Shown: one piece after another, positions 13,003 to 63,262 of the stretch
Layout: each line of letters starts with the position of its first letter
How positions within the stretch are numbered: position 1 is the stretch's first letter
NCBI GenBank assembly: GCA_007376385.1
Contig: VMGC01000002.1
Coordinates: 96,001-160,000, forward strand
Origin: Parcubacteria group bacterium Gr01-1014_8
Lineage (GTDB): Bacteria; Patescibacteriota; Minisyncoccia; Phycocordibacterales; UBA2100
DNA length: 64,000 bases
Direction: 5' to 3'
Notes under the pieces: generated by a model
Databases searched by the model: none
Seen by the model: only the letters and a program-made list of their open reading frames with translations
Told to the model about the DNA's origin: nothing
Translations under genes and position numbers: made by a program

Positions 13003-13181
13003 ATCAATTTATTTTCTGAAGCGCCTTTGCCGGCCTGTCCCGTTAGACACGAAGCTGTCTAACCGAGACGATCCTACTATTACAAGCTTCATACGAGCAC
13101 GATTGATATCCTAGAAGCCTAACACGTGTCAAGCGGATGTAATAAAAATGTTATTGACTCTCAGTGATATTTATATGAGTC

Positions 13182-13334
13182 TGGACGCAAGCAAGGGGAA
13201 GGAGGTGCGCAGTGTACAGGATCTTCTTGCTGGTTCGGTTGCTCTCCTTTTCGGGGGAAGTTACTTCAACGTGGGAGATCGATCTTCCGCCGAACGCTGA
13301 GTTTCCGCTCTGCATGCCTCCATGCAGCGCGTCC
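13182..13334 (+). ncRNA. candidate structured RNA in the dprA-topA intergenic region (strand and identity uncertain)
   Basis: Closing helix GGACGC...GCGTCC enclosing about 140 nt with several internal hairpins (GGGAGATCGATCTTCC, CTGCATGCCTCCATGCAG). Weak TTGACT/TATAT promoter-like elements upstream. Confidence 0.25.
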
Positions 13335-14194
13335 TAAATCGCACGAACCAATCCAAGCGTTTCCTGAATTAACCCTTTTATCTCCATCGTTGAAAGCAGA
13401 ATATTTGCTTCAGAAATAGACATTTCTAACTGAGATAGTAGTTCGTCGCGTGAGCAGGGCGAGGATAGTATTTCCAGCACTTTGCGCTCATCTGAAGACA
13501 AATCTTCTCGCAATGACGGACTTACGATGTCGGTCATTTCGATGCCGAGCGCTTTCAAGATGTCCTCGGGTTCCGTTACTGGCGTTGCGCCGAGTTTTAA
13601 AAATTGATGCGTTCCGCGGCTTTCGGCGCTGAAGATAGAGCCCGGAACGACTAACAACTCCCGATTATATTCGGTCGTAAGCCGCGCGGTGATAAGGGAG
13701 CCAGAACGCTCTTTTGCCTCGATGACCAGAGTCGCCAGGCATAATCCGGCCATGATGCGATTCCGCTGTGGAAATGTGTGATCGGCGGCTTTTTGCTTCG
13801 GCTCAAATTCTGACAACAAAGCTCCGCCCGCTTTTAAGATTTCTCGAGCCAGCCCAACATGCGCTCTAGGATAGATGACGTCCCAATCGAGACCAGACCC
13901 AGGGACTGCAACAGTGGGGAGTCCGGCGGAAAGGGCCGCTTTGTGAGCACATGCGTCTATGCCATAGGCGAGCCCCGACACGATGACGATCGGGTAGCCG
14001 CGGAGACCCCCTATTAGATGTTCGCACGCCTGTCGTCCGTAGGAACTTGCGGCGCGAGAGCCGACCACTGCGAGCCATACGTCGTCGTAACGGGGAAGCT
14101 CTCCCCGGACATACAATTGTTTCGGCGGGTCCGATATTTCGGCTAATAGAGGGTGGAAATGAGCTGCTTTGAGTTGGCGTAACGTGTCACTCAT
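13334..14194 (-). CDS. dprA: DNA-processing protein DprA/Smf (short form)
   Basis: LAVVGSRAASSYGRQ...IVSGLAYGIDACAHKAAL Rossmann-like DprA core; start set at MSDTLRQ. Confidence 0.85.
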   Translation of the reverse strand: MSDTLRQLKAAHFHPLLAEISDPPKQLYVRGELPRYDDVWLAVVGSRAASSYGRQACEHLIGGLRGYPIVIVSGLAYGIDACAHKAALSAGLPTVAVPGSGLDWDVIYPRAHVGLAREILKAGGALLSEFEPKQKAADHTFPQRNRIMAGLCLATLVIEAKERSGSLITARLTTEYNRELLVVPGSIFSAESRGTHQFLKLGATPVTEPEDILKALGIEMTDIVSPSLREDLSSDERKVLEILSSPCSRDELLSQLEMSISEANILLSTMEIKGLIQETLGLVRAI

Positions 14195-14208
14195 TGTACT
14201 ATCTATTG

Positions 14209-14276
14209 TATACCCCGTGAGATAAACAGGTCTGACCTTCAACAGGAAAGCGGATGTGCATATCTCATGGGGTATG
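14209..14276. promoter_or_regulatory. inverted pair of 16-nt motif (TATACCCCGTGAGATA 14209-14224; TATCTCATGGGGTATG 14261-14276) between divergent dprA and serS
   Basis: Same motif as at 7.5, 18.2 and 32.6 kb. Confidence 0.6.
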
Positions 14277-17125: not shown

Positions 17126-18160
17126 TTGCTCGTCTCTCGTGTTATCGTGCGCAAAATGAAAAACTTCTGGGACACATTGCCGCGCCCTTTTTTCATACAG
17201 GCGCCGATGGAGGATGTGACGGACGCCGCTTTTCGGCGTCTCATCGCACGTTATGGCAAACCGGATGTGATGTTCACAGAGTTCACTTCAGCGGATGGTC
17301 TCGTTCTTGCACCACCTTCAGGACAGAAGATACTGCGGAAAAAGTTGGCGTTTGATGAGAGCGAGAGGCCTGTTGTTGCGCAATTATTTAGCGCGATGCC
17401 GGAGCGTATGGAAAAAGCTGCGGAATTGATAACCGAACTCGGATTCGACGGACTCGATATAAATATGGGTTGTCCAGTGGATGAGGTCGTGAAAAGCGGG
17501 GCAGGGGCCGCACTCATCAACGACCACGAGCTTGCGAGAGAGTTGGTTCGCGCGGCTGACCGAGGGCTCCGATCCGCCGGCCGGCGGATGCCTATCTCGA
17601 TAAAAACACGGATCGGGTATCGCGAAAATGAGCTTGCGTCGTGGCTGCCCGTTCTTTTAGAAGTGGAACCGGCGATGGTGGCAATTCATGCTCGAACTCG
17701 AAACGAAATGTCTGCAGTGCCTGCCAGATGGGACACGGTGAAGGAGGCAGTTCATATTCGAGACCGGCTCGGCTCGAAGACTTTTATTGTCGGCAACGGT
17801 GACGTACGGGATATTTCTCACGCGCGGGAACGCATAAAAGAAAGCGGCGCCGATGGTGTGATGCTCGGGCGAGCTATTTACGGAAATCCTTGGTTGTATT
17901 CAGGCCGGACGGATGCACCGTCCCCGAAAGAGCGCATCAACGCGCTCCTTGAACACCTCTCACTATTCGAAGAATTGATGCAGGGGACAACGAACTATGC
18001 GACCATGAAAAAGCATTTCAAGGCGTACATTTCTGGCTGGCCTGCCTGCCGCGACGAGCACGGCGCAGGCAGGGACGGCGCGAAAGATCTGCGGGTGAGG
18101 CTTATGGAGACGGAAGCGATATCGCAAGCAAGAGAAATTCTTACTGGCGACGTAGAGTGA
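17126..18160 (+). CDS. tRNA-dihydrouridine synthase
   Basis: FFIQAPMEDVTDAAFRRL...DINMGCP...IGNGDV Dus-family motifs. Confidence 0.85.
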   Translation: MLVSRVIVRKMKNFWDTLPRPFFIQAPMEDVTDAAFRRLIARYGKPDVMFTEFTSADGLVLAPPSGQKILRKKLAFDESERPVVAQLFSAMPERMEKAAELITELGFDGLDINMGCPVDEVVKSGAGAALINDHELARELVRAADRGLRSAGRRMPISIKTRIGYRENELASWLPVLLEVEPAMVAIHARTRNEMSAVPARWDTVKEAVHIRDRLGSKTFIVGNGDVRDISHARERIKESGADGVMLGRAIYGNPWLYSGRTDAPSPKERINALLEHLSLFEELMQGTTNYATMKKHFKAYISGWPACRDEHGAGRDGAKDLRVRLMETEAISQAREILTGDVE

Positions 18161-18230
18161 GAGCAGAGAACATGTACTCATGTTCTCTTCCGAGCCGAGG
18201 AGTCAGAAACTAGAGCCAGTTTACCAGTGA

Positions 18231-20958: not shown

Positions 20959-21354
20959 ATGAAAGGATACGTTGCAAATATCGAAAAGGCTGCTCTTGAG
21001 AACGAATCGTTTCGGAAGGTGCTCTATACTGCAAAAAATTGCCAGCTTGTCGTGATGAGCTTGCGGCCGGGAGAGGATATAGGCGAGGAGGTTCATCAGC
21101 TTGACCAGTTTCTGCGGATCGAGTCTGGCGAAGGGAAGACAATTCTGGACGGTGTCGAGTACGACATTGCGGATGGCTCGGCGGCGGTTGTGCCTGCGGG
21201 AACAAAACACAACATACTGAACACATCCACTAACAAGAAGATGAAGATCTATTCGATCTATGCGCCGCCAAATCATCGCCGCGATGTTGTGCACGAGACG
21301 AAGCAACAGGCGGAGGAAGACGATGAACACTTTGACGGAATAACTACAGAATGA
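20959..21354 (+). CDS. cupin-domain protein
   Basis: Cupin two-motif pattern (G..EEVHQLDQF...AAVVPAGTKHNILN). Confidence 0.6.
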   Translation: MKGYVANIEKAALENESFRKVLYTAKNCQLVVMSLRPGEDIGEEVHQLDQFLRIESGEGKTILDGVEYDIADGSAAVVPAGTKHNILNTSTNKKMKIYSIYAPPNHRRDVVHETKQQAEEDDEHFDGITTE

Positions 21355-21358
21355 AGGT

Positions 21359-21607
21359 ATGTTGCCTATTTTGGTTCCTCGGCTCGGAATTGAAAATGAA
21401 TACACTTTCACTTCACTCGCAACGCTCGCCAATAAATATATGGAAAAGATAAAAATTGAACATCACACACTATCAGGAGGTCTCTGGATAGGGGCGTGGC
21501 TGTTCACGATCGGTTTTTTGCACCTAACATTTTGGAAAGGTGTTCTCGCCGTCGTGATATGGCCGTACTACCTCGGTGTTGCATTCGGCGGCTGGGTCCA
21601 CATATGA
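21359..21607 (+). CDS. small hypothetical membrane protein
   Basis: 82 aa with two hydrophobic segments; overlaps the start of the nirK-like ORF. Confidence 0.3.
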   Translation: MLPILVPRLGIENEYTFTSLATLANKYMEKIKIEHHTLSGGLWIGAWLFTIGFLHLTFWKGVLAVVIWPYYLGVAFGGWVHI

Positions 21608-33214: not shown

Positions 33215-33952
33215 ATGTCAGTCCTGAACGTTCAAAACCTCACGAAGGTCTACAAAGATGTGATTGCCGTCGATGGCATTTCTTTTTCAGTATCGAAAGG
33301 AGAGATAGTCGGGTTGCTTGGCCCAAATGGCGCGGGAAAAACATCGACCATCAGCATGATTCTCGGCGTTTTGGAGCCAAGCGGAGGAAATGTTTTTATT
33401 GACGGCAAAGACATTGTAAAAAAAAGAAGCGAAGCGTTAGTACGGACGAATTTTGCGGCCGTGTATGCGCAGCTGCCGGGCAATCTAAGCGTATATCAAA
33501 ATTTGATGTTCTTCGGACTTCTCTACGATGTGCATGGTATTCGCGCGAGGATAGAGACGATGTTGGAAAAATTCGATCTGAAGCATTATAAGAATTCGAA
33601 AGTCGGTTTTCTTTCGTCCGGGGAGCAGACCAGGGTCGGACTCGCGAAAGCGATGCTGAATTCACCCGGCTTGCTCCTATTGGATGAACCCACTGCATCT
33701 CTTGACCCATCGACAGCACGAACTACTCGCGAGTCTATCAAGGAGTATGCTGCGGAAGGCAAGGGCGGAGTAGTATGGACCTCGCATAACATGCAAGAAG
33801 TAGAAGCTGTCTGCGATAGGGTTCTTTTTCTCTCGCACGGCAAAATACTTTTGGAGGGCAATCCAAAAACACTTGCAGCGCAGCACGGAAAAAAAGATCT
33901 GGAGGAATTATTTATTACAGTGGCGCGCGAGCCGCTCTCGCTTGATATCTGA
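33215..33952 (+). CDS. ABC transporter ATP-binding protein
   Basis: GPNGAGKTS Walker A, LSSGEQTRVGLAKAM signature, LLLDEPTASLD Walker B. Confidence 0.9.
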   Translation: MSVLNVQNLTKVYKDVIAVDGISFSVSKGEIVGLLGPNGAGKTSTISMILGVLEPSGGNVFIDGKDIVKKRSEALVRTNFAAVYAQLPGNLSVYQNLMFFGLLYDVHGIRARIETMLEKFDLKHYKNSKVGFLSSGEQTRVGLAKAMLNSPGLLLLDEPTASLDPSTARTTRESIKEYAAEGKGGVVWTSHNMQEVEAVCDRVLFLSHGKILLEGNPKTLAAQHGKKDLEELFITVAREPLSLDI

Positions 33953-34013
33953 CCCGAACACACGAAGAGCACAGGCAACGAGCAATATGATGAGCACTAT
34001 GGACAAACACAGA

Positions 34014-34110
34014 ATGAAAGGTTTCAACCTCCGGGGCAAGCCCTGGACTCTGGGAAACGAGCACCGCTCGTTTCCCAAATTCCGCGGCCTGTCTGCGTGC
34101 ATCGCACAGG
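34014..34110 (+). repeat. copy A of ~97-nt near-identical direct repeat (copy B at 61918-62014); contains an 11-bp perfect hairpin
   Basis: 93/97 identity with copy B; GGGAAACGAGC-ACC-GCTCGTTTCCC. Confidence 0.6.
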
Positions 34111-34128
34111 CAGGCAAGCCGCGGGGTT

Positions 34129-34926
34129 TTGAACCTTTGCTGTCTGTGTCGCTTCCTCAGGCAAATGTACCTTTTCAGAGGAAGCCCAACCAGGTACGTA
34201 CAGCTTTTCGTATGGATAACTGTTGATATTGTTCTTTGGGGGTTCATCACCAAATATTTCACCGAGTCAGTAGGCGCAGAGTTCAGTTTTGTGACGACGC
34301 TTCTTGGCGCAGTCATTTTGTGGGACATATTAAGCAGAGCGCATCAAGGTACGACGATGCCTTTTTTGGAGGATGTGTGGTCGAGGAATTTTCTGAACAT
34401 TTTTGCGACTCCTCTCAAACTTCCGGAGTACTTGCTCGGCTTCATCATGACATCGCTTTTTACGACGGGCCTCGTTGTCGTTGCCATCTCGCTTTTTGCC
34501 GCGGTTGTTTTTGATTATTCGCTATTTTCGCTTGGAATATATCTCGCTCCGTTTCTCGGTATCTTGTTTTTGTTTGGCGCTGCGCTTGGTATTTTGGGCA
34601 TCGGGCTCGTGCTTCGATTCGGTCCTCCGGCCGAGTGGTTCACCTGGCCCCTTGCAGCCGTCCTTAGTCCTTTTGCGGGGGTGTTCTACCCTATCTCTAC
34701 GTTGCCTGACTGGATGCAGACAGTGGCATATCTGTTGCCGCCTGCCTATGTCTTTGAAGGCATGCGGGGAGTCATCTTGACAGGCGTTATCTCCGGCGGG
34801 TCGCTTGTGAAGGGTTTTGTACTAGCGTGTGTATACGTACTCCTCATGTATGCACTCTTCACGTATATGTATAGAATAGCTATACGAAATGGGCTTATTG
34901 CTCGGTACAGCGCCGAAGGGCCATAG
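34129..34926 (+). CDS. ABC-2 type transporter permease
   Basis: Six TM segments and the ABC-2 E.GT.E loop (AHQGTTMPFLEDVWS); TTG (34129) or ATG (34165) start. Confidence 0.7.
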   Translation: MNLCCLCRFLRQMYLFRGSPTRYVQLFVWITVDIVLWGFITKYFTESVGAEFSFVTTLLGAVILWDILSRAHQGTTMPFLEDVWSRNFLNIFATPLKLPEYLLGFIMTSLFTTGLVVVAISLFAAVVFDYSLFSLGIYLAPFLGILFLFGAALGILGIGLVLRFGPPAEWFTWPLAAVLSPFAGVFYPISTLPDWMQTVAYLLPPAYVFEGMRGVILTGVISGGSLVKGFVLACVYVLLMYALFTYMYRIAIRNGLIARYSAEGP

Positions 34927-48808: not shown

Positions 48809-49243
48809 ATGGAAGACAGGCCCTTTGTCGGTATTGGCGTAACGATACTTAAAGATGGAAAAATTCTCCTCGGCAAAAGAGTATCAACGTATGGGACCGG
48901 AGAATATCAAACGCCTGGCGGACATCTTGAGCCTAAAGAAGCTTTTGAGGCATGTGCGCGGCGAGAAACCTTGGAGGAGTGCGGACTCGAAATAGGCTCA
49001 ATCCGTTTTCAATTTGTAGCAAATGCCGTAGGGTATGGTCTCGTGCATTACGTTCATATTGGTTTGATAACGGAATGGAAGGCAGGTGAACCTAAAAATC
49101 TTGAACCTACAAAATGCGAAGGATGGGATTGGTACTCTCTTGACGCATTGCCGGAGCCTCTTTTTGTATACACGAAATGGTCTATAGAGGCACATCAAAC
49201 AGGACTCAATTATTTCGATAGTGAGGCCCGACCAGCGAAATAA
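48809..49243 (+). CDS. NUDIX hydrolase
   Basis: Nudix box G.LEPKEAFEACARRETLEECGL. Confidence 0.75.
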   Translation: MEDRPFVGIGVTILKDGKILLGKRVSTYGTGEYQTPGGHLEPKEAFEACARRETLEECGLEIGSIRFQFVANAVGYGLVHYVHIGLITEWKAGEPKNLEPTKCEGWDWYSLDALPEPLFVYTKWSIEAHQTGLNYFDSEARPAK

Positions 49244-49244
49244 A

Positions 49245-49375
49245 GGTTCCTCGGAGCTTGCTCCGAGGTATTATGGAGCTCGCTTCGCTCGCGCAGTCTC
49301 GCAGCAGAGCTGCGAGGTATTGAACCTGTGTTTGCTCCTCGGCACGGAAATGCAACAGAGTACTTTTGCATTTCT
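49245..49375 (+). repeat. hairpin-rich intergenic repeat element (related copy, opposite orientation, at 62619-62683)
   Basis: CCTCGGAGC-TTG-GCTCCGAGG 9-bp palindrome plus about 60 nt shared with the 62.6-kb copy; a 48-nt extra segment bounded by the 7-nt direct repeat GAGGTAT; trailing 9-bp hairpin GAAATGCAA/TTGCATTTC. Confidence 0.5.
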
Positions 49376-49447
49376 CTCGCAATGCTCGCAAATAAAATGT
49401 GAAGGCATCTTGACTCGATTTCGTGCACGGGTAGAGTATGGGGGTTC

Positions 49448-52450: not shown

Positions 52451-52508
52451 AAAAGTCTGCAGCGCGATCGAAAAAGTGTCTAGTTGAATATTGCTATAAT
52501 GAGTTCAC

Positions 52509-54464
52509 ATGGAATCCGCACGAGCCGAGAAAATACAAAAATCACAAGATGCCGATCTGTCAACTCAACCTGCAGCGGAACCTAAGTCAGTCGGAGATGA
52601 TCAATCTGGCATAGATACGGCTCGAAATGAGGAGGAAAGGAATCGTGAAGAACGAGTTCAGCGAGCCGAGACAATGTCCAAGATGTTGGATGTGTACGTG
52701 GCGAACAGAACTCCATCGTTAGTAGAGGAGGCCCTTAAAGGGATGCCAGAAACAGAGGTCGCTGTAAGAGAGGCGCGTGCGCAAGAAGTCAAAGAGCAGT
52801 CCGAAAGAATAAAGCAATTTTTCGTCAGTGTTGACGCTGGGAAAAGAGAGGAAACGCCGCTAACAAGAATGGCTCAAATTTATGAGTATCTTGATGCTCC
52901 GGAAAATCCTAGCGAACAAGCTGAATTTGAGACTGCGATGTCAGCTCATATGCAAGAATTAGTGGAACGTGCGTTTGATCAGCACCTAGACAACCCTGAG
53001 CAGTATGTGTCTCATGGATTCGATCATTCCCTCAACGTTGCCGATTATGCCAAAAATATAATTGATTTGAATGATGTAATTGTCGACCAGACCGCCCAGA
53101 AATACGGCATAAGTGCGAAGGAGGCAAAATTTATGCTGGAAAATGTTGCACTTTTTCACGACTGCGGCTACCCTCATGTTGGCGCAAAGGCAAAAGCTGT
53201 GCACGGCATTGCCGGTGCAGATCTTATCTCGACCCCGAAAATGCAGGGAATATTTCGGAATCTCATTAGGACCCCGGAGGCTAATTTGGACCTGCTTAGC
53301 CACGATCTGAGGGATTCAATACTTTTCCATTCAGCGGATAAAGTTGAGAATCAATTTTCAGCAAAAATACGGACTACACGCGGGACCTTTTTGTCGGAAG
53401 GTAGGGACGTGTATACGGTCATATCAACTTTTAATGATCCCTCGGAGAATCCGGTTGGAGTTGCGCGAGATATTTTGGAGATTGAGGTTGCTGATGAAGA
53501 AACAAAATTGGACATCGAAGCGCAACTTGCATTGGCGGCCGCTGATACAGCAAGAAAAACAGGTCTGCCACCCGAATCAATTCCGGTTACTGTAGGAGGC
53601 TCCCGATTTAAGGGCAGATACACAGATCTTGCGAGGGCGAAGGATAATCGTTTGGGTTTGGAGTACTCAGAAATCGATGCTTTGCAGACACCATTGCATG
53701 CGATCATTCGATTGGCAGACAATATGGACATGCGCCGCAATCGATTTTCTGCTGTACAGAGGGAGCCAGCGTTTCGTGCAACCTATCAAGCGTTTAGCGA
53801 TGGGGGACAGACGAGCAGAGCCCTTGTAACTTTAGAGGCCGAAAGTAAATTATTCAAAGGTCGCTTGGCAAGTGCGGGTTCAGAGACAGAAAAAGCTCAG
53901 CTTCTGGCAGACTCACCGCAGCTCGTTCAGTCGCAGTTTCAAGCGCTACTGGCGGAAAATCAAAACCTTGTAACAGTCACAACGGAAGAAATAGCGTCGT
54001 TGCAGCAACCTTCAGACGCGGAGAAACTTTGGAGAAAAGGCATAGCGGAACGGATCATCAACAGCGAAGATCAGGTGTTATCGCCGGAGAATAAAAGAAA
54101 AATAATGAGCATGGCTCTTGCGCAAGATTCACAGGGAATGCGGCATTTTGGCGGTTGCGAAGCGGTAACAGATGTCCGAATGGAACGTTTCGGTGAGCGC
54201 GGAGCTGAAGTTTCAATTGTCGTTGTTACAGCAGATAGGGGGCAATTTGAACAGCTCAATCGCACGCGTGTTCAGGATTCAAGCCTCGATAAAGAGGGGA
54301 ACGTCAGCACTGTCGAGCTTGGCATAGGTGAGTATCAAATTTGGCGCGCGCGTGAGGCTTACAAAAGTATCTCGGTTGGTGGGAAAAAGATCGGCATAAG
54401 GGTTCAGGACGAGAATGGCTTGGAACTCCAAACGACTTTTGAACAATTTAGAGAGGAGAAATAG
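52509..54464 (+). CDS. large hypothetical protein with central HD-like motif
   Basis: VSHGFDHSLNVADYAKN...ALFHDCGYPHVG; acidic, coiled-coil-rich N-terminus; 651 aa. Confidence 0.5.
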   Translation: MESARAEKIQKSQDADLSTQPAAEPKSVGDDQSGIDTARNEEERNREERVQRAETMSKMLDVYVANRTPSLVEEALKGMPETEVAVREARAQEVKEQSERIKQFFVSVDAGKREETPLTRMAQIYEYLDAPENPSEQAEFETAMSAHMQELVERAFDQHLDNPEQYVSHGFDHSLNVADYAKNIIDLNDVIVDQTAQKYGISAKEAKFMLENVALFHDCGYPHVGAKAKAVHGIAGADLISTPKMQGIFRNLIRTPEANLDLLSHDLRDSILFHSADKVENQFSAKIRTTRGTFLSEGRDVYTVISTFNDPSENPVGVARDILEIEVADEETKLDIEAQLALAAADTARKTGLPPESIPVTVGGSRFKGRYTDLARAKDNRLGLEYSEIDALQTPLHAIIRLADNMDMRRNRFSAVQREPAFRATYQAFSDGGQTSRALVTLEAESKLFKGRLASAGSETEKAQLLADSPQLVQSQFQALLAENQNLVTVTTEEIASLQQPSDAEKLWRKGIAERIINSEDQVLSPENKRKIMSMALAQDSQGMRHFGGCEAVTDVRMERFGERGAEVSIVVVTADRGQFEQLNRTRVQDSSLDKEGNVSTVELGIGEYQIWRAREAYKSISVGGKKIGIRVQDENGLELQTTFEQFREEK

Positions 54465-61390: not shown

Positions 61391-61921
61391 ATGCGTCCTG
61401 ATACTATGGTTGTAGAAAAATACAGAGACGTCATGAAGCTTCCGCACGATATAGAAGCCGAGCTGGACGGTGCGCCTCTGTTTGAAAATTTGGAAGCTGC
61501 AATGGGGACACTTGAGCTCGAGCATAAACGCCGTCGCAACCTTTTAGAGCACGCTGGGAAGGCAGAACGTCTCAACTACCCTGATAAGGCAACTGCGATA
61601 AAAGCAGCGATAATGAATGGAAGGTCAGCAGCAAAAGAAACAGCTGCGTGGGAGGATTTTACGCAGTCGAATCCTTCTGCAGAACAGGCGGCAATAGTTC
61701 TAGCGCACGTCTCTCATTTTAGGTCCGCGAAACCGACGCTGCTCGATATGGCAATTGATTTCTTTCTTCTTCGTATTCAGGAGGTTACTGATGCGAAAAA
61801 ATCAAGAGAGATAGTGGCTCTCGCTGCAAATGCCATTCGCAGCAGGCATCTGGACGATCCCGAAAAAAAAGGATATTTACGGAGACTGCAACTCTTAAAT
61901 GGAGTGGGCGAGGAAAAATGA
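61391..61921 (+). CDS. hypothetical protein
   Basis: 176-aa ORF; its stop overlaps the ATG that opens repeat copy B. Confidence 0.4.
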   Translation: MRPDTMVVEKYRDVMKLPHDIEAELDGAPLFENLEAAMGTLELEHKRRRNLLEHAGKAERLNYPDKATAIKAAIMNGRSAAKETAAWEDFTQSNPSAEQAAIVLAHVSHFRSAKPTLLDMAIDFFLLRIQEVTDAKKSREIVALAANAIRSRHLDDPEKKGYLRRLQLLNGVGEEK

Positions 61922-62014
61922 AAGGTTTCAACCCCCAAGGCAAGCCCTGGACTCTGGAAAACGAGCACCGCTCGTTTCCCAAATTCCGCGGCCTGTCTGC
62001 GTGCATCGCACAGG
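61918..62014 (+). repeat. copy B of the ~97-nt direct repeat
   Basis: Aligned to 34014-34110 with 4 mismatches. Confidence 0.6.
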
Positions 62015-62058
62015 TACACATATATCGGCGGCATTCACCGTGGTACACTGGCACTCCC

Positions 62059-62610
62059 ATGAACACAACGATTACGACAGGGTGGCTGAAGTTTGTCATA
62101 GGATGGACAGCTGTGTTCCTATTCCGCTTGATACCATTCAGACCGCCGAATTTTGAGCCAATGTTGGCGACGATCATGCCGTTCTCAAAGCGATACGGCG
62201 TTGTGGGGAGCTTTTTGTTCGGATTCCTCGGAATTGTTCTCTACGATGCAGTAACGTCCGGCTGGGGGATATGGACACTTGTAACGTCCGTCTGCTACGG
62301 CCTGTTGGGTGTCGGAGCATATTTTTTCTTTAAGAATCGTGAGGCAACGGCAACACATTTTGTGATGTTCGGCGTCCCGAGTACGGTATTGTACGACGCT
62401 GTAACGATGATGATAGGACCCCTCTTCAATGGACAATCTTTTGCTGCGGCGCTCATAGGGCAAATTCCATTCACCGTCATGCATCTTCTTGGAACCATTG
62501 TATTTGCAACACTTCTCAGTCCCGCTTTATACCGCTGGGTCGTTCAAAATGATGTTTTGGAATTTTCTGTTCTATGGATGCAGGTTCGCTCGTTGATCGG
62601 CACTCGTTGA
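62059..62610 (+). CDS. multi-pass membrane protein (possible ECF-transporter S-component-like)
   Basis: 5-6 TM helices. The track ORF begins at 61918 inside the repeat; the internal Met at 62059 is a more plausible start. Confidence 0.5.
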   Translation: MNTTITTGWLKFVIGWTAVFLFRLIPFRPPNFEPMLATIMPFSKRYGVVGSFLFGFLGIVLYDAVTSGWGIWTLVTSVCYGLLGVGAYFFFKNREATATHFVMFGVPSTVLYDAVTMMIGPLFNGQSFAAALIGQIPFTVMHLLGTIVFATLLSPALYRWVVQNDVLEFSVLWMQVRSLIGTR

Positions 62611-62618
62611 AATTACTC

Positions 62619-62683
62619 CTGCTTTATTTCCGAGCCGAGGAGCAAACACAGGTTCAATACCTCGGAGCTTGCTCCGAAGAACC
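62619..62683 (-). repeat. second copy of the hairpin-rich repeat element (reverse-complement orientation relative to 49245)
   Basis: GCCGAGGAGCAAACACAGGTTCAATACCTCGGAGCTTGCTCCGA. Confidence 0.5.
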
Positions 62684-63262
62684 TTTATCTTTGCGAGGGC
62701 GAATAAATACAAATATATCATTCGCCGAGTAGGTGTCATCGGAATTTGCTCGAAGCTCGAGTTGACGTTGTCCCGGAAGAAGAAATCGCATGGGACCAGC
62801 GATAGAAGAAAGTCCAAAAACATGAGACGTATGGGCGCTGACTGGAATAGCTTGCATACCAAGTACCAGGTGTTCGCCAGGAGGTTGATTACGATATTGG
62901 ATACGAAGCAATGGGCCTACTTGAGGTGGACATAATTCGAGCCCATGTGCCACAGCAATTTCACAAATATATTTGTAGAGTCCCGTGCCATGCTTTATTT
63001 TGTCGTAATCGAAACCCAGGCTTCGTGCTGACAGTGTCACTAATTCTACTTCTCTGCTTTTTGGCGCGTCTTGAAATGATGCGGTTTCAAGGAGTTGATG
63101 CGCGTCTTGAGTGATGTAACATCCAGCATCATTGAGCTTCTTCCGGAAAGACGATGCGGATTCCGAATGGGCAGGAAGCATGAGGCGCATGAGAACTGGC
63201 AATTTCTCTATTGATGTATCAGCATGAGCCGTATCCGTATTGGACTTGGGATAGTTTTTCAT
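62654..63262 (-). CDS. hypothetical protein
   Basis: 202-aa ORF; its last 9 codons are encoded by the repeat element, so the real extent is uncertain. Confidence 0.3.
   Translation of the reverse strand: MKNYPKSNTDTAHADTSIEKLPVLMRLMLPAHSESASSFRKKLNDAGCYITQDAHQLLETASFQDAPKSREVELVTLSARSLGFDYDKIKHGTGLYKYICEIAVAHGLELCPPQVGPLLRIQYRNQPPGEHLVLGMQAIPVSAHTSHVFGLSSIAGPMRFLLPGQRQLELRANSDDTYSANDIFVFIRPRKDKGSSEQAPRY

Follow-up and report, generated by a model that had tools for sequence, protein, structure and literature searches.

Why are two transporter genes in a 64,000-nucleotide stretch of the Parcubacteria group bacterium Gr01-1014_8 genome (contig VMGC01000002.1, positions 96,001–160,000; hereafter the window) each preceded by a near-identical, hairpin-rich sequence? 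One copy (A) lies between the ATPase and ABC-2 permease genes of an ATP-binding cassette (ABC) transporter, and the other (B) lies upstream of the gene for the S-component of an energy-coupling factor (ECF) transporter. A preliminary description of the window had favoured a shared cis-regulatory RNA. That reading does not survive the finding of many scattered copies without positional preference, while one of the alternatives it listed, a repeat resembling repetitive extragenic palindromic (REP) sequences, proved essentially right in kind. The 97-nt sequence is probably a 5′ fragment of a unit belonging to a dispersed, structure-defined family of intergenic repeats in Parcubacteria (Kaiserbacteria-like members of the Candidate Phyla Radiation, CPR). 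Members occur in multiple dispersed copies, in either orientation and sometimes in tandem; they are missing at orthologous sites in relatives and are independent of the function of their neighbours.

Ungapped alignment of 34013–34110 with 61917–62014 gave 4 mismatches over 98 nt, bearing out the near-identical 97-nt direct repeat originally reported. Allowing up to 3 mismatches, a 53-nt core was found at these two sites only in the window and had no match in 100 shuffles; the similarity of A and B is not expected by chance. The hairpin described within the repeat was also seen, with an 11–12-bp stem (GGGAAACGAGC-ACC-GCTCGTTTCCC) in copy A and an A·C mismatch at its base in copy B. The ‘second imperfect hairpin’ is present as sequence, although what was described amounts to no more than the loop and 5′ half of a longer hairpin, one that is whole in copy A (34082–34124) and cut off in copy B. 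The 97-mer comprises the 5′ arm of an outer stem, P1, two hairpins, H1 and H2, and half of a third, H3. All four differences between the copies do alter an amino acid in the ATG-AAA-GGT frame, as had been stated. The conclusion that conservation is not at the peptide level agrees with the lack of any protein match, but the argument from nonsynonymous differences is weak alone because most random changes are nonsynonymous anyway.

Two assemblies of the same strain, ERZ27284378 and ERZ27284380, contain a 196-nt unit at both loci. The former (L002 and L004; L-numbers denote contigs or loci from other assemblies, related genomes and metagenomes) is 100% identical to the window over 10,939 and 12,030 nt (~23 kb in total), and the latter (L001) is 99.9–100% identical over 1.8 kb. 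The full unit runs from AATGAAAGG to GACAGATAAAG, with 5 differences between loci A and B. Compared with the full-length copy B of another assembly, the similarity of copy A runs on to 34153. Copy A in the window (34013–34153, + strand) is truncated, covering nt 1–141 of the unit (full length in L002:10799–10994, = L004:1–139). It opens with TGA-AAAGG, followed by the P1 5′ arm (34017–34029), H1 (34030–34047), H2 (34051–34077), H3 (34082–34124), the P1 3′ arm (34125–34138) and CTGTC, the 5′ arm of a second stem, P2 (34140–34144). Copy B (61917–62014, + strand) retains only unit nt 1–98, that is, the P1 5′ arm, H1, H2 and the 5′ half of H3 (full length in L001:1074–1269). Two stretches present in these assemblies are missing from the window: 143 nt at 34153/34154 (unit nt 142–196 with 88 nt of flank) and, at 62014/62015, 123 nt (unit nt 99–196 with 25 nt of flank). 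The junctions have little or no microhomology at either locus, and the gaps may be local mis-assemblies or real deletion variants. Copy A is predicted to fold into three hairpins enclosed by an outer stem (−78.5 kcal/mol, z = −7.9), a structure far larger than that noted earlier, whereas copy B ends in the middle of the third hairpin (z = −1.9) and has lost a third of the structure. The element folds about equally stably on either strand.

Contigs from two other assemblies stop inside the element or at its end. MEGAHIT (k139) and Logan contigs of the same strain (L002, L003, L004 and L005) end in or at the element at both loci (window 34084 and 61946, and the unit ends), and the overlap between L002 and L004 is exactly 139 nt, unit nt 58–196. 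These contig ends suggest graph branching at a repeat, with perhaps further copies or variants in the population behind them. In a metagenome-assembled genome (MAG) from GTDB, a run of ~100 N (L006:9727–9825) directly precedes an element copy upstream of an S-component gene, consistent with the repeat having interrupted assembly or scaffolding.

Comparison of members revealed a common architecture, and copies are alike in this architecture more than in sequence. Each unit opens with (G)TAAA or TGAAA (T(A/G)A-AAGG...) leading into P1, the loop of which may carry nested GC-rich hairpins. P1 is followed by the 5-bp stem P2, enclosing two conserved unpaired boxes, UCCUCGGCUCGGAA on the 5′ side and UUCnCUCGCyCUACGUCG on the 3′ side, together with a variable hairpin, P3; the unit ends in CAG, after which comes TAA. 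Across 8 seed sequences, 91% of alignment cells in P2 and P3 are paired, compared with 27–47% when the partners are slid, and 8 of the 14 pairs change on both sides. For P3 alone, 72 distinct sequences gave 95.5% pairing, with double changes at 8 of 9 pairs. Stems covary freely among the 36 distinct P1 sequences, as in AAACCGG/CCGGTTT, AAATTGG/CCAATTT, AAATCCC/GGGATTT and AAGCGG/CCGCTT, and P1 falls into length classes of about 13–20, 38–46, 86–89 and 119 nt because of the GC-rich hairpins nested in its loop. The covariation analysis that the preliminary description had proposed as a check thus showed that P1, P2 and P3 all covary. Copies A and B are of the nested-P1 kind. Related nested modules were found in other organisms (L060, L095, L108 and L140), and L105 contains an A/B-type core with a covaried P2, CTGCC/GGCAG (CTGTC/GACAG in A and B).

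Four further members in the window came to light in sensitive searches, first with the full unit and later with profiles. Copy C (49240–49399, + strand) is a complete, diverged member in which a TAA-AGGTTC P1 with nested hairpins is followed by P2 (UUUGC/GCAAA), P3 (GAAAUGCAA/UUGCAUUUC) and the tail CTCGCAATGCTCGCAAATAAAATG; its TAA (49241–49243) is the stop codon of a NUDIX gene. Copy D (62600–62689, − strand) is a short partial member consisting of GATAAAGGTTC, one nested hairpin and GAACCTGTGTTTGCTCCTCGGCTCGGAAAT. A 202-aa open reading frame (ORF; 62654–63262, − strand, no Pfam match) takes its last 13 codons and its TGA stop from this copy, which abuts the stop codon of the S-component gene on the opposite strand, leaving only ~43 nt between the 202-aa ORF and this convergent gene. 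Copy E (21350–21439, + strand) has a degenerate P1. It starts with AATGAAGG at the TGA stop of a cupin gene (20959–21354), contains P2 (UUGGU/GCCAA) and P3 (GAAUUGAAA/UUUCACUUC), and finishes with the tail CTCGCAACGCTCGCCAATAAATAT, which reaches as far as the ATG (21440) of a small membrane-protein ORF. Copy F (18141–18224, − strand) is a canonical member, with GTAAACT-GGCTCT-AGTTT as P1, then CTGAC, the box UCCUCGGCUCGGAA, P3 (GAGAACAUG/CAUGUUCUC) and the tail CUCUACGUCGCCAG-TAA. Flanked by dus and dnaX and antisense to each of them, it overlaps the dus stop codon (18158–18160) with its tail. Scored with the covariance model R1, C, D, E and F reach 85.6, 25.7, 86.4 and 81.8 bits, respectively, values that hold by construction, all four being among the 8 training sequences of the model.

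The 64 kb therefore hold six members, on both strands and beside unrelated genes: dus/dnaX, cupin, NUDIX/helix–turn–helix, ABC transporter and ECF S-component. Within this genome, identity is 97% between A and B over 196 nt and 87–91% between C and D, with E and F distant. The A/B pair is the product of a recent duplication.

The family extends well beyond this genome. Using a gapped pattern of the two boxes, we matched 96 stretches in JGI metagenome contigs, mostly from groundwater and aquifer samples, of which 92 are family members in 71 distinct contexts. The same pattern found no copy in viral contigs. Profile and covariance-model searches placed further members in L018 and L006, which are related genomes. 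Copies are randomly oriented with respect to the nearest long ORFs on the two sides (same/same 14, opposite/opposite 15, same/opposite 13 and opposite/same 10), and the 105 nearest neighbour proteins fall into 102 Pfam families, none of which is enriched. A second copy lies a few kb away, on either strand, in 8 loci; direct tandem copies with a common junction TAA are present in L063, L070 and L080; and an identical 58-nt core recurs in 11 different flanks. An exact 21-mer from the central hairpin (AACGAGCACCGCTCGTTTCCC) had no match among GTDB representative genomes or JGI metagenomes, and at this stringency the A/B subtype is strain-specific.

Orthologous sites in relatives mostly lack the element. 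In the two closest relatives with the same gene order as locus A, the gap between ATPase and permease genes is 22 and 5 nt, compared with 318 nt here, which corresponds to an empty site by sequence comparison, these relatives being too distant for the filled and empty sites to fix the element boundaries. Among 44 related S-component loci there are 2 clear copies and 1 weak match, and 41 are without the element; these copies were detected only with a profile and covariance model of the core, blastn and nhmmer searches of the same loci with the 196-nt unit giving nothing significant.

The boundaries of the element are tied to stop codons. GT precedes P1 in nearly all copies, giving GTAAA. Downstream of the 3′ CAG, the next triplet is TAA in 46 of 62 cases and TAG in 8. 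Approximately 36 long ORFs on the same strand end within 200 nt upstream of a copy, and for 17 of them the stop codon is the TAA of GTAAA itself. Copies B, C and E in the window likewise provide the gene upstream with its stop through their T(A/G)A (for B, the TGA at 61919–61921, which terminates a 176-aa ORF). At the other end, several convergent ORFs stop at CTA (= TAG) in the element tail.

Multiple copies, dispersal, near-identical pairs, empty sites, unrelated neighbours and assembly breaks together identify a bacterial intergenic repeat family of the kind represented by REP sequences and their REPIN doublets, bacterial interspersed mosaic elements (BIME), ERIC and elements resembling miniature inverted-repeat transposable elements (MITEs). 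We propose that the repeat is a non-autonomous element, new copies of which would be made in trans by an enzyme recognizing the folded hairpins and conserved boxes. Copying would most plausibly take place on single-stranded DNA, our leading guess for the enzyme being an HUH/Y1-type protein like those of REP–RAYT (REP-associated tyrosine transposase) or IS200/IS605 systems. Insertion at (G)TAA sites would explain why the first TAA or TGA serves as an upstream stop codon, why TAA flanks the 3′ end and why tandem copies have a TAA in common.

REP and REPIN elements, with their RAYT transposases, are described from Enterobacteria and Pseudomonas (PMC3116915, PMC5581495). Like them, the present element is short, hairpin-forming, extragenic and multi-copy, occurs in either orientation, is sometimes clustered and has near-identical copies within a genome. 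It may also have deletion variants; deletions at REP elements have been taken as evidence of mobility (PMC3116915). A further possible likeness is a short conserved motif directly 5′ of a hairpin, GT-AAA in this element. In classical REPs, GTAG stands directly 5′ of the palindrome. The GTAAA of the element differs from this motif and is a putative cleavage signal. The two kinds of element also differ in size and complexity, as the unit described here is 80–200 nt with three helices and ~30 invariant unpaired bases, while a REP is a palindrome of 20–40 nt. The replicative unit of a REPIN is an inverted doublet of REPs (PMC3116915), whereas copies of the element are single or in direct tandem. 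Neither inverted doublets nor a RAYT gene was seen, the latter being absent from the window genes scanned and not enriched among the 105 neighbours, and the element is therefore not a REPIN by the definition in PMC3116915. We found no literature linking REPIN/RAYT systems to CPR bacteria.

The element also shares features with MITEs and with mosaic intergenic repeats such as ERIC/IRU, RU-1/2/3, BIME, Correia, RUP and BOX (reviewed in PMC3184786 and PMC2759123). These include a length of ~100–200 nt, much secondary structure, an intergenic location, a modular organization in which internal modules are optional, occasional overlaps with the ends of genes to which it supplies stop codons, and a possible short duplicated target (TAA). 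Unlike a MITE, it has no terminal inverted repeats, with a 5′ hairpin of variable sequence at one end and a conserved CGCCAG at the other, and is therefore not a classical MITE; nor was a related insertion sequence found, and conservation resides in structure and internal boxes rather than termini. Non-autonomous derivatives of IS200/IS605 (palindrome-associated transposable elements, PATEs) and TnpB guide-RNA regions are similar in lacking inverted termini and in having hairpins near both ends, a strand-specific architecture, a short conserved left-junction sequence and possible recognition as folded single-stranded DNA. They differ in that no tnpA or tnpB gene, and thus no IS200/IS605 parent, was found beside any copy, in the sequence analysed, or among the window genes scanned, and no IS605-type motif in Rfam was matched. 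An integron attC site was rejected on comparison by eye with the core-site consensus sequences.

Several observations weigh against a mobile repeat. No mobilizing enzyme was found: the window genes scanned are housekeeping genes without a transposase, integrase or HUH enzyme, none of these is enriched among the 105 neighbours, and the Pfam families listed for those neighbours include no transposase. There are no terminal inverted repeats, the P1 stem at the 5′ end not being complementary to the conserved 3′ ...ACGTCGCCAG, and the flanking TAA may be a target duplication or part of the element. The evidence comes from ~64 kb of this genome and from short flanks elsewhere. Finally, ~30 unpaired nucleotides hardly vary between genomes in which the S-component proteins share only 67–78% identity. 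This conservation of the boxes is above that usual for a purely selfish repeat and fits a functional RNA or a protein-binding site equally well.

The strongest alternative, which we nevertheless consider doubtful, follows from this conservation: the core (P2, P3 and the boxes, with P1) would be a functional structured RNA whose copies are kept by selection rather than by selfish spread. It might serve to bind proteins or direct processing at mRNA 3′ ends or in intergenic regions, or act as a guide-RNA-like scaffold or a small ribozyme. Covarying helices combined with invariant unpaired boxes are the classic signature by which structured RNAs are nominated, and here three helices covary while the unpaired boxes are nearly invariant across many organisms. 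The frequent start of the element exactly at a stop codon could likewise reflect a role at mRNA 3′ ends. However, orientation to the flanking genes is random, with copy F antisense to both neighbours, and the flanks have no common promoter, so half of the copies would be transcribed in the wrong sense unless they carry their own. Both strands fold about equally well, no Rfam family is matched, and the combination of tandem arrays, near-identical copies with differing flanks and orthologous sites left empty is the behaviour of a repeat element. In a more specific and tentative proposal that we rate slightly higher, though still well short of probable, the invariant core (P2, P3, UCCUCGGCUCGGAA, UUCnCUCGCyCUACGUCG and the GTAAA-hairpin P1) could be the recognition or active module of a new CPR system, either the substrate of a domesticated single-stranded-DNA transposase (and so a REPIN/RAYT-like replicator persisting over the long term in the streamlined genomes of symbionts) or a structured RNA class such as a stop-codon-coupled processing signal or small ribozyme.

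It is very unlikely that the repeat is a shared riboswitch or attenuator leader co-regulating the ABC-2 permease and the ECF S-component. The initial appeal of this explanation is clear, as both copies are highly structured and lie on the same strand 5′ of membrane-transport genes; like ECF and ABC transporter riboswitches, they have covarying helices and conserved junction nucleotides. Unlike riboswitches, however, the element has no link to particular genes: the four further members in the window are beside unrelated genes or antisense, the 71 contexts elsewhere show unrelated neighbours and random orientation, and there are many copies per genome. The element is missing from 41 of 44 related S-component loci and from both related ABC loci, and copy B in the window is without a third of the structure. 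An Rfam scan had been proposed in the preliminary description as a further check; in Rfam 15, no family matched the window, the full-length copies or canonical members, even at permissive thresholds (E ≤ 1–10). Simple scans of the unit found neither a sigma-70-like promoter nor an intrinsic terminator (a GC-rich hairpin with a T-run), leaving no terminator- or promoter-like expression platform.

The position of copy B relative to the S-component gene argues in the same direction. An extended −10-like box (GTGGTACACT; 62040–62049, + strand) lies downstream of copy B and 9 nt before the S-component ATG (62059), and the S-component genes of relatives have a similar box (TGTGnTAnnAT; TGTGGTACCAT, TGTGCTATCAT and TGTAGTATACT) 8–12 nt before their ATG. 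On the basis of this conservation, the box is a putative promoter of the S-component gene, and its position places copy B upstream of the likely promoter and outside any leader. What had looked like a ‘conserved leader’ before the gene is this box, outside the repeat. The two transporters are not co-regulated by a shared riboswitch, a false lead that can be set aside, and any effect of the element on the two genes is incidental. The proximity of the box to the ATG (window 62040–62049; L006–L032) suggests that S-component mRNAs in this clade are very short or leaderless. In addition, five homologues (P0003, P0005, P0007, P0026 and P0043) have over-called N-terminal extensions (...WYTG.PM) that are the translated box.

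Hardly any weight can be given to the idea that the repeat encodes a small peptide or a common N-terminal extension (MKGFN...) of the two membrane proteins. An ATG does open both copies, and copy B has a good Shine–Dalgarno sequence and is in frame with the S-component, in the window only. This 230-aa fusion exists only through the 123-nt gap; at the full-length locus B the frame of copy B ends after 67 codons, and homologues of the S-component (~180 aa) begin at MNTTITT-like positions. The apparent ATG belongs to the conserved T(G/A)A-AAGG with which the element begins and overlaps the stop codon of the upstream gene, and stem covariation would scramble any peptide. A six-frame pseudo-protein of the unit matched nothing among 5.8 billion proteins at E ≤ 10, and the unit is therefore not coding.

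Diversity-generating retroelements (DGRs) are common in CPR bacteria, and 3 of the 4 differences within the 97-mer have A in copy B where copy A has G, as could arise in a template/variable repeat pair; one metagenomic locus also has family copies beside a DGR-type reverse transcriptase. We regard this explanation of A and B as equally remote, given that the remaining differences are T/C and not confined to adenines, both copies are non-coding, the family has dozens of dispersed members, and no reverse transcriptase was found in contig look-ups or among the window genes scanned against Pfam, an annotation that is not exhaustive. The locus in question, L105:1–2015 (duplicated as L132), encodes the reverse transcriptase (…LTSQLFANVYLNELD…YCDDF…) with two element copies just upstream, and its association with the element is probably incidental. 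L105 also contains a ~45-nt repeat pair (GGGGGCGAAAACCGC...GTCGTTCCGGT.GTCAGGCGTA) with few differences, resembling a template/variable repeat pair.

The dispersed intergenic repeat that we favour represents a previously undescribed, structure-defined family of CPR bacteria, missing from Rfam and from the searchable literature on REP, MITE, REPIN and structured RNA in Patescibacteria/Parcubacteria. CPR/Patescibacteria genomes are small and gene-dense and, to our knowledge, are not known for repeat families. Here, a repeat with three covarying helices and ~30 nearly invariant bases is common to many groundwater Parcubacteria and tied to stop codons. If confirmed as a family, it would offer a handle on the persistence of mobile or self-maintaining DNA in reduced genomes and a clean candidate for work on a new hairpin-recognizing enzyme or structured RNA. 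It would also explain assembly breaks and local mis-assemblies in these MAGs, such as the window permease without a start codon.

At that locus, the ATPase gene upstream of copy A (33215–33952, + strand) has a C-terminus conserved in relatives. The permease gene (34129–34926, + strand) has lost its true start (ATG, MSFRRIYAIF...; compare L004:202–1002), as the 143-nt gap takes out the start codon and eight codons. The remaining candidate starts are an in-frame TTG inside the element (34129), which would give a 265-aa product instead of the native 266 aa, and an internal ATG at 34165. Permease homologues are 266–267 aa and cover the longer version end to end, with close relatives sharing ...RIYAIFLRQMYLFRGS; since homologues match the longer N-terminus, the permease in the window is N-terminally damaged. 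Within the ABC operon, co-transcribed hairpins may affect mRNA stability or uncouple translation.

Other features of the window touch on gene calling around the copies. The small hydrophobic ORF next to copy E (21359–21607; MEKIKIEHHTLSGGLWIGAWLFTIGFLHL...) has a longer call, from 21359, that starts inside the element; its start is probably the ATG at 21440, directly after the copy E tail. The 202-aa ORF reads through the first hairpin of copy D (62654–62692, − strand). Conservation of the tail CTACGTCGCCAG as an antisense Dus C-terminus was rejected because the tail recurs in 71 unrelated contexts. A weak model match at 52477–52545 was unconvincing as a member, and a 1.25-kb ‘gene-free gap’ (13003–14255) is a DprA-like gene dropped by the ORF filter. 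Finally, the first nested hairpins of copies C (49252–49271) and D (62678–62660, − strand) have the same stem and complementary loops, CTTG and CAAG, as though by inversion of the hairpin; other members, too, have nested hairpins with CAAG loops.

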